Source: a virus. Taken from it: a DNA stretch of 64,000 nt. The notes below the pieces were generated by a model. That model made no database searches. It was not told the DNA's origin and saw only the letters and a program-made list of their open reading frames with translations. A program made the translations under genes and the position numbers. Numbering within the stretch: position 1 is the first letter of the stretch; every line of letters begins with the position of its first letter. Positions 50,407 through 63,116 of the stretch are shown one piece after another. The DNA lies in IMG/VR virus record IMGVR_UViG_3300014502_000001, positions 28,772 through 92,771 of that record. One strand, 5' to 3'.

Positions 50407-51600
50407 TTATCTAGCGTTTGGCCAACCGCGCACAGGCAGACCCTGAGAACGCTTCTGCATCTTCAGCTGGAATCCACCCATTCTTTCTGCATGGGTTTTG
50501 AGAGTGCGCATGGCAAGCTTATTTATCTTGTTCTCAGCTTTAGCCTTAACACCAGCCATCTGAATTTTGGCTTTTGCATCATTGTGAATTTTTACCATCT
50601 TAGGAGATGACTTCCACTGGCTCAGCCATCTTTTCTTTGATATGCCAGCAGGAGCGCCGTGCTCCTTATTCATGTTCTTGCTAGATATGCCCCACTTCAT
50701 GCCTGGAACGCCGTACTCCTGAACAGCATTCTCGCTAGGTCCTTGCAGAGCTTTCACCTTATCAATTCTGGTTCTGAGAGTACCAGCCCTTTTGCTGAAA
50801 CGCTGAATTTTTTTATCAGCCCGCTGAGCAGCGAATCCACCTCTGGCCGCATTGAGTTCTCTGTTAGCGGTGCTAAGATAAAATTTATTTGTATTTATGT
50901 GACCTTGGATATTTCTCAGAAGCTCTTTTTTTCGCTGACCCCATTTCATGCCTTGAACGCCGTACTCGTTTATTTTAGATTCACGTGCCATCCGACCGGA
51001 ATAGAAGCGTGACATGGAACCTGGCGCATGACGTACCACCGTCACTCCATTCATTCTGGTTTTAGATATGACTGCACCCTTTGGTCCCATACGGAATCCT
51101 GTATTGACATTGGCTGTCCTTTTCTCGAGACCAACCTTATAAAGAAATACACTAGCATTTTTGAGTCTATCCAGAGCTGAGCCGTGACCCAATGACTGAG
51201 GATTCCGCAATGCAGTCATCTGCTTGTGCAGACCTCCCTTGGCTAACCACGCAGCCCGACCAGCAGTGACACCCCATTTCATGCCTTGAACGCCGTACTC
51301 GGAGAGCTTGGATTCATAATATGTACCACCAAGATTGCCCTTGACCTTTGTCATGCCAAGTTCTTTATACATAGCGGCCATTTGCCCACGATTCTGGATA
51401 GCACGGATGCGGCCTATCATCTTTTTATTCACTTGTAATATGCGAGTCTGGCCTAGCTTGGTGCGAGCGCTCTTCAGACTTTGTCTTGTCCTGACAGCAA
51501 TGCGTGTAGCTGTCTGAAGATTGTTCTCGCCCGCCCGCCGCGTTCCCCATTTCATTCCTTGAACGCCGTACTCGTGAAGGATTATATTTGCAAGTTGCAT
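50407..51600 (-). CDS. Very basic repeat protein with four EYGVxGMKWG units (putative capsid-internal polyprotein)
   Basis: Start at ATG 51600 behind AAGGAG; motifs at 51544-51573, 51271-51300, 50938-50967, 50689-50718. Confidence 0.8.
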   Translation of the reverse strand: MQLANIILHEYGVQGMKWGTRRAGENNLQTATRIAVRTRQSLKSARTKLGQTRILQVNKKMIGRIRAIQNRGQMAAMYKELGMTKVKGNLGGTYYESKLSEYGVQGMKWGVTAGRAAWLAKGGLHKQMTALRNPQSLGHGSALDRLKNASVFLYKVGLEKRTANVNTGFRMGPKGAVISKTRMNGVTVVRHAPGSMSRFYSGRMARESKINEYGVQGMKWGQRKKELLRNIQGHINTNKFYLSTANRELNAARGGFAAQRADKKIQRFSKRAGTLRTRIDKVKALQGPSENAVQEYGVPGMKWGISSKNMNKEHGAPAGISKKRWLSQWKSSPKMVKIHNDAKAKIQMAGVKAKAENKINKLAMRTLKTHAERMGGFQLKMQKRSQGLPVRGWPNAR

Positions 51601-52253
51601 TCTAGACTCCTTTGCGCCCATGCTCGCTCTGCAGACACGCTCATTCTGTGGCGCGTCTCTTGAGAAAAAATTTGCCTGCTACGTGATTCACGCAGTTTCT
51701 TGCAAGTTCTGAGGGAGACAATCTTTCCTTTTTGCGTTTCACTTATTTTTCTTCTGGTCTCTTTAGAGACGCAATGACCCTTTAGTGATTCACTCATCTT
51801 TATACGCGTCTCATGAGAAATAATTTTTCCTTTGTGCGCCTTACTTATTTTTCTTTTAGTCTCTTTGCAAAGATGCTTACCAAACAAATAATGTTTTTGG
51901 CCAGATACGATTGCACTCAGCTTCAATCTTGTCTCAGTACTAGGATTCAGAATACCATCACCGCCGTCGGTGGAATTAGTTAGTCTGTAACCTAGCGCTC
52001 TATACTTTTTAATCATTGCCATTTCATCAGTATTCCATATTGCATTGCCTTTCAGCAATCCAATTCTAACTTCGTAGCCTTTAGCATAAACAGATCTGAT
52101 CCAGCGAGCAGCATAAGTATCAGATTCATCAGTCAGATTTCTCCTGTGGCCTCTCAATCTCACAGTCAAACGATGCTTAGTCTGACCAATATATCTCATT
52201 CCAGAATTACCAGGCTCTGTGGAATAGAGATAATAAACTTTGATATCACTCAT
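51582..52253 (-). CDS. GIY-YIG homing endonuclease with NUMOD3 repeats
   Basis: VYYL..RYIGQT..RL.GH..E..LTNSTDGG; repeated S.ETR.K.S. Confidence 0.9.
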   Translation of the reverse strand: MSDIKVYYLYSTEPGNSGMRYIGQTKHRLTVRLRGHRRNLTDESDTYAARWIRSVYAKGYEVRIGLLKGNAIWNTDEMAMIKKYRALGYRLTNSTDGGDGILNPSTETRLKLSAIVSGQKHYLFGKHLCKETKRKISKAHKGKIISHETRIKMSESLKGHCVSKETRRKISETQKGKIVSLRTCKKLRESRSRQIFSQETRHRMSVSAERAWAQRSLECNLQI

Positions 52254-52762
52254 CGGCTTGCTCGTGTCGCCGCCTCCGCTAATAGCTGATCTATCATTGC
52301 AAAGGTCTCCTGGATGTACTGTTCAATCTTTACCAGCAATTCACTGCGCGTTTGTAGCACCATGAGATAGGCCGGAGTACCAGGGTGATGCACAAGCTTG
52401 GTGAATATCTCATCACCTTCATAGGTCGTGAAGTGCAAAAACTTTGCCGTCTTTGGTCTGATCTCATGCGGCTTAGTGCCCTCTTCAAAAAACCGGATCA
52501 CGTCTGGATTGGGATATAAATTGTGAATAACAAATTCCACAACACGATCTCTGCTATCAGCCGCCGGACCATCCATTACCCAAAAGTCACGAATTGTGGT
52601 ACTGCCGTCATGCTGCTTTGGAGTGTGGATTTTAACGGTGTCCAGAGCCCAGCGTGCAATTTTGCGCTGGGATACGCGCATGCGCGGAATGACTTTATTG
52701 TAAAGTGCACCCATGCGTGCACGGAACACTTCATAATCCACAGTCCACTTCATCTGTATCAT
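52250..52762 (-). CDS. HK97 gp10-like neck/tail component
   Basis: TP.....IR..W, FFEEGTKPHEIRPK..K.L.F, V.HPGTP. Confidence 0.75.
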   Translation of the reverse strand: MIQMKWTVDYEVFRARMGALYNKVIPRMRVSQRKIARWALDTVKIHTPKQHDGSTTIRDFWVMDGPAADSRDRVVEFVIHNLYPNPDVIRFFEEGTKPHEIRPKTAKFLHFTTYEGDEIFTKLVHHPGTPAYLMVLQTRSELLVKIEQYIQETFAMIDQLLAEAATRASR

Positions 52763-61989: not shown

Positions 61990-61991
61990 GG

Positions 61992-63116
61992 TTATCTCAC
62001 TGCTGATCGTCTGTGACCACCGAAGGCTCTCATGAGTCGAAGATTATCAGAAGACAGTCCCTTTCCTGTCGCTGATCTCCAGGACTTGGGTGTGCCGCCG
62101 CTCTTTGCTGTTTTAGCAGCAGCCTGCGCCTTGTTGCTCTGGCCAATGGTGGTGCGCTGGCTCTGCGGCATTCTGCCATACTTGCCGGCATCGGGAAATC
62201 CCTTTCCGCCAGTTTTGGCATATTCCTTTTTATAGAATTTGTCGCTGGCCTTGGCCATTTTGGCCTGCGCAATATTCTTTTCCAGTCCTCTATTCAGTGG
62301 ATTATGCGTGCCCCACTTCATGCCTGGAACGCCGTACTCGGAGACCGCAGATTCTGCGGCTGGCTTAGCGCCCTTCTTCTTAGCCAGATATGCAGCAAAA
62401 CCTGGATTCATGCCTTTCTTTTTCTTGCCACCTTTGGCAGCAGGAGCAGCCGCCGCTTTAGGGTCGGCAGCGGCAGCGGCTGGCTTAGCGCCCTTTTTCT
62501 TAGCCAGATATGCAGCAAAGCCTGGATTCATGCCTTTTTCTGCTACAGCCGCCGCGCCGCCCTTAGCCCGCGCCAGAGCGCGATGCTTAGCCGCTGAGCG
62601 ATGGAATTTGTATTTGGTCGTAGAATCGGACGCAGCAGCTTTCTTTTTCTCTAGACCTTTGGCTATTGCCACGTGGTCCTTGGCCTTGAGATTGGCAAAT
62701 GCCTCACTGACGGCAGCTGCAGTCTGGAGCAGATGTTCAGTCCTGTTCTTTATTACAGATCTTGCATAGGAATTTCTTTCTCCTCTTGCAATTCCATGCT
62801 CTCTGCCATAATTTCTGGAAGCTTTTGCCGAGCGTGCCGCCGAAAAACGAGCTAGTATTTTATTTCCCTGGCCGTGACGATCGACAAATGTCTTTACAAG
62901 ACCAGAGAATTTTGCCTTCATCCCAGGAGTTTTTGCAGCATGCAATTTATCAGAAGCTCTGTTGAATCCCTTAAGACCGCGATCAGCTCTTCTCAGACCA
63001 GAAGCTTCTGATGGTCTTCTGCTCCCCCACTTCATGCCTGTTACGCCGTACTCCGCCAGTGCGGGAGCGCACTTTTGGAGTGTGTTGCAGATGCGCTCAG
63101 ATATAAGCTGGTTCAT
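61992..63116 (-). CDS. Very basic Lys/Ala-rich protein with two EYGVxGMKWG units (putative capsid-internal protein)
   Basis: Motifs at 63024-63053 and 62310-62339; duplicated KGMNPGFAAYLAKKKGAKPAA. Confidence 0.8.
   Translation of the reverse strand: MNQLISERICNTLQKCAPALAEYGVTGMKWGSRRPSEASGLRRADRGLKGFNRASDKLHAAKTPGMKAKFSGLVKTFVDRHGQGNKILARFSAARSAKASRNYGREHGIARGERNSYARSVIKNRTEHLLQTAAAVSEAFANLKAKDHVAIAKGLEKKKAAASDSTTKYKFHRSAAKHRALARAKGGAAAVAEKGMNPGFAAYLAKKKGAKPAAAAADPKAAAAPAAKGGKKKKGMNPGFAAYLAKKKGAKPAAESAVSEYGVPGMKWGTHNPLNRGLEKNIAQAKMAKASDKFYKKEYAKTGGKGFPDAGKYGRMPQSQRTTIGQSNKAQAAAKTAKSGGTPKSWRSATGKGLSSDNLRLMRAFGGHRRSAVR
62356..62537. repeat. Two near-identical ~62-bp direct repeats, 120 bp apart
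   Basis: gcggctggcttagcgccctt.ttcttagccagatatgcagcaaa.cctggattcatgccttt at 62356 and 62476. Confidence 0.9.

Follow-up and report, generated by a model that had tools for sequence, protein, structure and literature searches.

Tag-headed basic polyproteins beside the gp21-type prohead protease of an uncultured T4-core phage: candidate head-internal cargo

Introduction

An uncultured, T4-core phage, represented by a complete 92,771-bp virus record with 123-bp terminal repeats (IMG/VR record IMGVR_UViG_3300014502_000001; G000 is the label of this phage's own record), encodes two very basic proteins, p404 and p374, that carry four and two copies, respectively, of the tag YGVxGMKWG. The window analysed here is the 64-kb stretch formed by bases 28772-92771 of that record. 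Each copy of the tag directly follows a hydrophobic residue, any residue and a glutamate (h-x-E), and p374 lies directly upstream of the gene for a protease of the T4 gp21 family. The question raised by this locus is what proteins of such a design are, and what a constant tag behind a constant glutamate could serve.

In short, p404 and p374 are probably accessory, head-internal cargo polyproteins that the gp21-type protease cuts after each h-x-Glu into tag-headed basic peptides. The parts of this reading, which is drawn from sequence comparison, differ in strength: packaging in the head is very likely, cleavage after the glutamate is fairly probable, and a DNA-associated or ejected role for the basic peptides is proposed tentatively, by analogy. 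Below, positions are those of the window unless a record or locus is named, a slash marks a predicted cut, and P1, P2, P3 and so on are the residues counted upstream from it.

Tagged proteins of the phage

The two window proteins and their tags are as follows.

50407..51621, minus strand: p404, 404 aa (397 aa from the Met at 51600), pI 11.4; a 17-aa leader and four tag-headed basic units
51544..51579, minus strand: p404 tag 1, LHE/YGVQGMKWG
51271..51306, minus strand: p404 tag 2, (ESK)LSE/YGVQGMKWG
50938..50973, minus strand: p404 tag 3, (ESK)INE/YGVQGMKWG
50689..50724, minus strand: p404 tag 4, (ENA)VQE/YGVPGMKWG
61992..63116, minus strand: p374, 374 aa, pI 10.8; a 22-aa leader and two tag-headed basic units; directly upstream of the protease gene
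63024..63059, minus strand: p374 tag 1, LAE/YGVTGMKWG
62310..62345, minus strand: p374 tag 2, (ESA)VSE/YGVPGMKWG

A degenerate DNA pattern for YGVxGMKWG finds exactly 6 sites in the window, all on the minus strand, with 0.00 expected from 100 dinucleotide-preserving shuffles. These are the four plus two copies that had been claimed in an earlier note on this DNA, and the hydrophobic-x-Glu triplets read there (LHE, LSE, INE, VQE, LAE and VSE), together with the four copies said to sit in an E-x-x-h-x-E linker (ESKLSE, ESKINE, ENAVQE and ESAVSE), are all in the sequence. If the proteins are split at E/Y, the predicted units are of 91, 111, 83 and 102 aa for p404 and of 238 and 114 aa for p374. 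The p404 segments had been described as basic and dissimilar to each other, and both hold: their pI is 11.0-11.5 with 17-23% Lys+Arg, and BLASTP detects no significant mutual similarity among the tag-stripped units. All window units have a pI of 10.8-11.5 and 17-23% Lys+Arg, while the 17-aa and 22-aa leaders are short and neutral.

The motif, which had been recognised as familiar from other phage proteins, is the Pfam family DUF7211 (PF23847), about 25 residues long, matched by p404 at 75.3 bits and by p374 at 39 bits (gathering cut-off 27). Genome-wide there are 12 matches, 7 of them individually above the 27-bit cut-off. One PHROG family, phrog_35934, matches the tag region and is annotated as a virion structural protein, and beyond the tag neither p404 nor p374 matches a Pfam or PHROG domain. 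Among 5.8e9 proteins p404 has no homologue except its own record and the same-genome paralog p245, and near-identity, protein and tblastn searches with the region and with p404 gave no match in 50,697 phage records. The ESM Atlas model of p404 is of low confidence (predicted local distance difference test, pLDDT, 0.49), a look-alike search of the ESM Atlas with p404 gave no usable match, and the window proteins look disordered. An internal translation start at the Met of the tag was considered and rejected, as the conserved DNA has no Shine-Dalgarno-like spacing ahead of the ATG. In p374 a direct 20-aa repeat, GMNPGFAAYLAKKKGAKPAA, occurs at 62355-62414 and 62475-62534, with 3 of 60 nt different and an Ala/Pro/Lys-rich spacer between the copies.

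Outside the window, 6 more full tags and 2 truncated ones lie in four more head-module proteins.

Outside the window: p89, one tag, at residue 12
Outside the window: p918, a 419-aa N-terminal region, IEE/tag, a PARP/ADP-ribosyltransferase (ART)-like domain, a Gly-rich tag after LVE/, and topoisomerase IB
Outside the window: p755, a Tpt1/ART-like region with two Gly-rich tags after LDE/ and LQE/, then LDE/tag, a Tpt1/PARP-like domain and LSE/tag
Outside the window: p245, two full and two truncated tags, basic units

A genome-wide pattern scan confines the tags to the six proteins p404, p374, p89, p918, p755 and p245 of the portal-protease-capsid region, which hold all 12 full copies; the six genes are all on the late strand, around the portal, protease and capsid. 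Every full tag (12/12) and both truncated tags (LNE/YGVAGMH, and LSE/YGVNKK followed by a stop) are preceded by [ILV]-x-E, with P2 free. Nine of the 12 copies are internal, giving polyproteins of up to four units, and leaders of 11-22 aa ending in h-x-E are present in p89, p404 and p374. In p918 and p755 the tags and the second, Gly-rich tag, each after h-x-E, stand exactly between distinct enzyme domains, and the tags mark orphan basic units as well as borders of unrelated enzyme domains. The suggestion of about six peptides is right for the window and understates the genome, which has 9 basic units and enzyme cargo.

The second tag, (E)GxxxSGN(F/Y)GHxGQGTGEVGGS, is present in 3 copies, after LDE, LQE and LVE, ahead of enzyme domains (L009:7318-9585, L009:9564-12320). 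Its counterparts in relatives are GNWGHAGRPNEVGGS (G004) and GNFGHAGRPGEQG (L246), and no Pfam family matched it.

The prohead protease and the capsid protein

The candidate protease and its presumed capsid substrate are encoded side by side.

60604..61989, minus strand: prohead protease, a T4 gp21/Peptidase_S77 domain at about aa 1-200 and an acidic, coiled-coil, scaffold-like C-terminal half
59358..60593, minus strand: major capsid protein, Gp23 family, by Pfam and PHROG matches
60339..60350, minus strand: candidate capsid maturation site VLNE/D (aa 82-85), which aligns with RLQE/D of the relative G004

The open reading frame (ORF) 60604-61989 matches Peptidase_S77 at 29 bits (cut-off 27) and phrog_207 at 2.4e-29, and its first 200 residues are 33-34% identical to T4-like cyanophage gp21 over 98% of the length, with 763 T4-like records matched. 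In an alignment of the T4, G000 and G004 proteases, T4 His85 and Ser140-Ser141-Arg142-Gly143 are invariant; His85 and Ser140 are the catalytic residues of T4 gp21. Judged by these matches, the ORF is a true gp21/S77 homologue, which bears out the gp21-like protease that had been noticed next to one of the tagged ORFs. There is no separate scaffold gene ahead of the capsid gene.

The capsid protein is only about 25% identical to T4-like capsid proteins in the 50,697 phage records. The VLNE/D site pointed out earlier is indeed present at aa 82-85 of this Gp23-family protein, and its alignment with RLQE/D falls within an otherwise diverged capsid propeptide. The known cleavage site of T4 gp23, LTE/A, is in the same N-terminal region. 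The gp21 protease of T4 cuts after L/I-x-E, and related proteases also cut after Glu, with S/A-x-E in phiKZ, A-x-E in SPN3US, and likewise in 201phi2-1 (PMC9026906, PMC7411985). Because of this family precedent (PMC9026906) and of the conserved VLNE/D and RLQE/D capsid site, the protease is presumed to cleave after aliphatic-x-Glu.

The residue before the tag and the type of protease

If the flank of the tag is a cleavage site, the residue before it should go with the protease. Tag types were counted by pattern scans of IMG/VR, and for the His-type the protease content was taken from records of 30 kb or longer. Tags of the Glu-type are rare, with 14 stretches in 10 records, and those of the His-type common, with more than 106 stretches; 43 Gln-type and 12 Asp-type stretches occur as well. 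DUF7211 is also found in at least 252 cultured phages, of Arthrobacter, Gordonia, Streptomyces, Streptococcus and Lactococcus, in about 900 places.

The His-type is uniform. All 190 distinct tags (101 loci) have His at P1 and a hydrophobic residue at P3 (172 times Leu); 145 of the 190 have Asp, Glu or Asn at P5, and 69% of the tags are within 30 codons of a preceding stop, that is, N-terminal. Among the 39 His-type records of 30 kb or more, 37 have Peptidase_S78, in most cases within a protease-capsid fusion of 600-740 aa, and 0 have S77. In the linkers of 17 such fusions, 96 of 108 His (89%) occur as [LIVMF]-x-H, versus 39% elsewhere in the same proteins. These linker sites, 5-7 per linker, are typically [DE][DE]x[LMIV]xH followed by G/S/N/A/D, with acidic P5/P6 as in the tags. 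Fusion counts exclude the high-GC loci L169, L173, L174, L234, L237, L239 and L242, for which the choice of the longest ORF gave antisense frames. The flank ahead of the tag is thus one and the same as the recurring linker motif, and both are naturally read as cleavage sites of that S78 protease. We know of no description of cutting after His by S78-capsid fusions, and a literature search on capsid-protease fusions and N-terminal processing after His found nothing relevant.

In the Glu-type records P1 is Glu in every tag and S78 is present in 0 of 10. S77/phrog_207 is present in this phage and in its relative G004, with about 40-50% protein identity between the two. A second clade of Glu-type genomes (G001/2, G005-G009), which has replication genes and the p918 family in common with this phage at 25-50% identity, combines a phrog_15531-type protease with a Mu-gpT-like capsid; Gp23 capsids were searched for in the other Glu-type records and not found. 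A phmmer search of both proteases against PDB sequences gave no useful match. The rule that a Glu tag means a gp21/gp23 phage was rejected as too narrow, because the second clade uses a different capsid. The earlier note had proposed a survey of Glu against His variants, and the survey comes out in the direction predicted. Its expectation that the Glu variant goes with gp21 stands in part: Glu never occurs with S78 and S77 is found in this phage and G004, but the second clade departs from it in both protease and capsid.

In the second clade the tags follow L-R-E or L-Q-E, and L-R-E recurs twice in the capsid N-terminus of G005 and 2-6 times in portal N-terminal regions. The tag there occupies positions that lie inside the head, namely the N-terminus of the protease (G005) and extensions at the C-terminus of portal-like proteins (G006, G007), and tags also occur on MuF-type proteins in related genomes. 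The G005 protein (L138:3792-6284) is of 830 aa, with a Glu-type tag at residue ~30, a phrog_15531 head-maturation-protease region at aa 155-350 and a very acidic scaffold-like tail; therefore the protease itself is tagged. The portal-like ORF of G007 (54510-58472; L145/L146) is of 1320 aa, with a ~320-aa insertion relative to the 824-904-aa homologues in G001, G006 and G009. By eye the insertion looks intein/HNH-like, and the ORF ends in a tag and a basic unit.

Cargo behind tags elsewhere includes InPase, topoisomerase IB, a kinase-like domain, RNA ligase, acetyltransferase and peptidase, and such domain types are predicted to be virion-delivered in "polyvalent proteins" (PMC5512222). One G006 protein (L141:14359-15906) joins an InPase domain, LQE/HGIKGMKWG and topoisomerase IB, and the next gene (L141:15903-17147) encodes a tag followed by a PI3/PI4-kinase-like domain. 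In the cultured Gordonia phage Fazel, gene 13, annotated "RNA ligase" (L243:7513-9186), has an internal His-type tag at about residue 356, and gene 20 (L243:14729-16837) is annotated "major capsid and protease fusion protein". Asp-type tags, TTNED/YGVPGMKWGEH, lie ~400-1000 residues into very long ORFs of the viral contigs L222, L224, L226 and L231, and neither S77 nor S78 was found in the records of L222, L224 and L226.

Gene fission, variability and mobility

In G004 three separate single-tag basic proteins, of 89, 142 and 115 aa (pI 10.4-11.8), carry the tag 14-20 residues from the start, behind the shared leader TFTNK..(K)ALNE/. This outcome of the comparison of unit number and order proposed in the earlier note argues in favour of separable units in the fused proteins. 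The G004 homologue of p918 has its cargo modules in a different order and begins with LLE/YG fused to the Gly-rich tag. Metagenome relatives with a 58% identical capsid were found via a two-sequence capsid alignment search, the capsid protein alone having found no relative in viral contigs as query; these relatives have no tag within 17 kb around protease and capsid.

The start of each window gene overlaps a homing endonuclease gene.

51582..52253, minus strand: GIY-YIG/NUMOD3 homing endonuclease gene, overlapping the p404 start
63113..63661, minus strand: HNH homing endonuclease gene, overlapping the p374 start by 4 nt

In the syntenic metagenome relative L244 (L244:13198-14083), orthologues of the 170-aa and 144-aa neck-region genes are adjacent. 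Therefore the GIY-YIG gene and p404 are a ~1.85-kb insertion (window 50407-52253), and the cargo gene may travel jointly with its endonuclease gene. Both window genes are accessory. A second, near-identical GIY-YIG gene follows p245, the 3' end of which (genome 793-870, L009:793-870) encodes a truncated tag, ESKLSEYGV-NKK and a stop. There a run of 26 nt, GAATCCAAGCTCTCCGAGTACGGCGT, matches p404 tag 2 without a difference, and the identity breaks exactly at the start of the GIY-YIG gene.

The tag is constrained as DNA as well. The 11-mer GAGTACGGCGT, identical in 10 full copies and one truncated copy and found on the coding strand only, is a possible homing or recombination site. The Glu codon of the tag is GAG in 12/12 copies versus 59% in genome usage (0.59^12 ≈ 0.002, assuming independent copies) and the Tyr codon TAC in 11/11 versus 28% (0.28^11 ≈ 8e-7, on the same assumption); GGC is used in 10/12, and free variation is seen in the codons of Lys and of the last Gly. 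As DNA, the 5' half is thus more strongly conserved than the peptide needs. Conservation of the whole 30-bp motif in DNA, as once suggested, applies to this 5' half (GAGTACGGCGT) and not to the 3' half. The accompanying idea that units are shuffled by recombination gains support from the codon uniformity and from the truncated tag abutting a homing endonuclease gene.

The gene order, from the genome end wrapping into the window, is a 104-aa ORF, the HNH gene, p374, the protease, the capsid protein and a glycosyltransferase cassette, then neck genes, the GIY-YIG gene, p404 and the tail tube. The remaining tagged genes follow the portal.

L009:12615-14321: T4-type portal, after which p89, p918, p755 and p245 come in transcription order

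The interval from capsid to neck (53475-59265) holds glycosyltransferase genes and an ORF that looks methyltransferase-like from its sequence, and is split by an HNH gene; its two large glycosyltransferase genes are kept in G004, L244 and L245.

Weighing the readings

Several results weigh against packaged and processed cargo as the explanation. The literature search found no mention of the DUF7211 family or the GMKWG motif, and no proteomics or biochemistry for any member. The protease of the second Glu-type clade has no Pfam match. Gln-type genomes have S78 in 10 of 12 cases with linkers mostly of h-x-H and few of h-x-Q, and mixed His/Gln tag loci occur; therefore P1 of the tag and P1 of the linker sometimes mismatch. 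The Glu-type genomes are phylogenetically non-independent, sharing replication and MuF genes, and the switch from His to Glu may therefore have happened only once or twice. As h-x-E is a common tripeptide, with 425 occurrences in this genome, the site by itself is weak evidence, and the genome-wide enrichment of LRE, h-x-H and h-x-E versus shuffles is modest (z ~1-6) and was not used as main evidence. Since GAGTACGGCGT is shared by ten full copies with uniform codons, concerted evolution may explain part of the P1 uniformity within the genome. Finally, the conserved peptide stays on the product, unlike the T4 capsid-targeting sequence (CTS), so that this analogy is incomplete.

Several of these points suit an alternative in which the 40-kDa basic proteins are packaged but stay uncut and intact, with the DUF7211 repeats as multivalent motifs for docking or DNA binding and h-x-(E/H/Q) as a part of the motif structure. 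The flank [DE]xxLx[HEQ] is conserved with the tag in all lineages and can be read with it as one long motif, the Gln-type tags beside His-type linkers are then no anomaly, a conserved part that remains on the product is as expected, and uniformity within the genome is explicable by concerted evolution. This reading leaves unexplained, however, why [DE]xxLxH recurs 5-7 times in S78-capsid linkers that have no tag, why Glu at P1 coincides precisely with a Glu-specific protease family, why tags stand at the borders of unrelated enzyme domains, and why the relative G004 has separate unit genes. It is considered unlikely, though it deserves to be taken seriously.

Alternatively, the arrangement could be a mosaic by-product of homing-endonuclease or recombination activity on a conserved DNA word, with the tag spread by recent duplication or gene conversion and the basic segments having little or no function. 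Homing endonuclease genes abut both p404 and p374, p404 and the GIY-YIG gene are an insertion relative to L244, the truncated p245 tag shares its 26 nt with p404 tag 2 directly before a GIY-YIG start, GAGTACGGCGT is common to the 10 full copies and the truncated p245 copy, and p404 is without homologues and has a low-confidence fold. Against this, the genome is compact and its coding strand keeps the long frames open and intact, the codons in the 3' half of the tag differ synonymously with the peptide kept, the flanks and P2 differ among copies, and the segments are unrelated rather than duplicated. All units have the same extreme basic composition, and the tag peptide is kept across hundreds of distant phages with different codon usage, so that we regard a functionless mosaic as highly improbable.

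That the tagged proteins are early or late cytoplasmic DNA/RNA-binding factors, found in the structural region by chance, is the least probable of all, for although p404 lies among neck and tail genes, not head genes, the six genes are on the late strand around portal, protease and capsid, phrog_35934, the family matched by the tag region, has a virion-structural annotation, and related genomes carry tags on portal C-terminal extensions, the protease N-terminus and MuF-type proteins.

Proposed mechanism and comparison with known systems

For head-internal cargo polyproteins, we infer packaging, cleavage and a function of the released peptides as follows. The tagged proteins would be loaded into the procapsid as precursors, where the S77 prohead protease (60604-61989) would cut after Glu. 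This would release ~9 different very basic peptides of ~80-240 residues, six of them from the window proteins, and would free enzyme cargo (ADP-ribosyltransferase-like, Tpt1-like and topoisomerase IB) from the proteins outside the window, every product beginning with a tag. The P-side (h-x-E here, L-x-H/Q in other lineages) would be the part matched to the protease of the phage, and the invariant P'-side tag would serve another conserved partner or step, for instance docking inside the head or leaving it with the DNA. The tag is the same across S77, S78 and other protease lineages; therefore its partner is unlikely to be the specificity pocket of the protease. The basic peptides may be counterparts of the T4 internal proteins, DNA-associated and/or ejected.

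More broadly, DUF7211 and its flank might form a portable two-part address for head cargo, which is put forward as a speculation. The flank would be a cleavage site that co-evolves with the prohead protease of each phage (His/Gln for S78, Glu for S77 and the third type), and the tag, at the new N-terminus, would act in DNA retention or portal exit. Units of site, tag and cargo could be strung into polyproteins and moved with homing endonuclease genes that exploit the DNA word of the tag, yielding a fast-changing injected arsenal.

The proteins resemble other DUF7211 members in the motif itself, in their location in the head module and in the several copies that are often found per genome. They differ from typical members, which have His before the aromatic residue (HYGVKGMKWG) and a single near-N-terminal copy, in having Glu at 12 of 12 copies. 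Glu at P1 is a variant within DUF7211, not ground for exclusion.

With the T4 internal proteins (IPI-III, Alt) the system shares a gp21-family protease, an aliphatic-x-Glu site and basic head-internal proteins (PMC9026906, PMC7411985), here read from the genes, as well as an ADP-ribosyltransferase among the cargo and cargo genes that are highly variable between relatives. It differs in that there is no sequence similarity to the T4 internal proteins or the CTS, and T4 internal proteins are single units, not polyproteins. The targeting peptide of T4 is upstream of the cut and discarded, whereas the conserved peptide here is downstream of it and would be retained. No homology to IPI/II/III, Alt or the CTS was found with Pfam, PHROG, tblastn in the 50,697 phage records or the 5.8e9 proteins.

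In phiKZ, 201phi2-1 and SPN3US, a gp21-related protease cuts many head-internal or ejection proteins after x-x-Glu, some of them at several sites (PMC9026906, PMC7411985). The gp21-related protease and the multiple x-x-Glu sites per head-internal protein are shared with the phage described here, whereas the new N-termini in phiKZ-like phages are without a shared tag, P3 there is a small residue (S/A) and not an aliphatic one, and the genome is of much greater size. No homology to phiKZ-like inner-body proteins was detected. By analogy, then, the system would work like the T4 CTS and internal proteins and the phiKZ-like inner-body proteins, but has no homology with either.

For polyvalent proteins (Iyer et al. 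2017), packaging and delivery have been predicted, and an in-built zincin-like peptidase has been proposed to process them (PMC5512222). Next to the portal, p918 and p755 join a MuF-like region to ART/Tpt1-like and topoisomerase IB domains. With ART-like and topoisomerase IB domains in p918 and Tpt1/PARP-like ones in p755, both have the two or more effector-type enzyme domains beside head genes that characterise such proteins, and relatives add InPase and a kinase-like domain. The likeness has limits: PMC5512222 is without this tag, and p404 and p374, in which the tag is the sole domain, have no recognisable enzyme domain.

Significance

The main interest of the locus is a testable link between the flank of the tag and the prohead protease, together with cargo genes that move with homing endonucleases. 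If the reading of p404 and p374 as processed head cargo is true, a T4-core virus would build its internal proteins as polyproteins, with cargo genes travelling with homing endonucleases. Like the T4 CTS, the short tag could be used to bring foreign proteins into phage heads, and the P1 specificity of uncharacterised prohead proteases would be revealed. DUF7211, an uncharacterised family that occurs in many metagenomic phages and in hundreds of cultured phages of actinobacteria and Firmicutes, would be the mark of proteins that enter the capsid and are trimmed by the prohead protease. Effectors delivered by virions could then be predicted from sequence, whether they are orphan basic peptides or enzymes such as ADP-ribosyltransferases, topoisomerase IB, RNA ligase and kinase-like ones.

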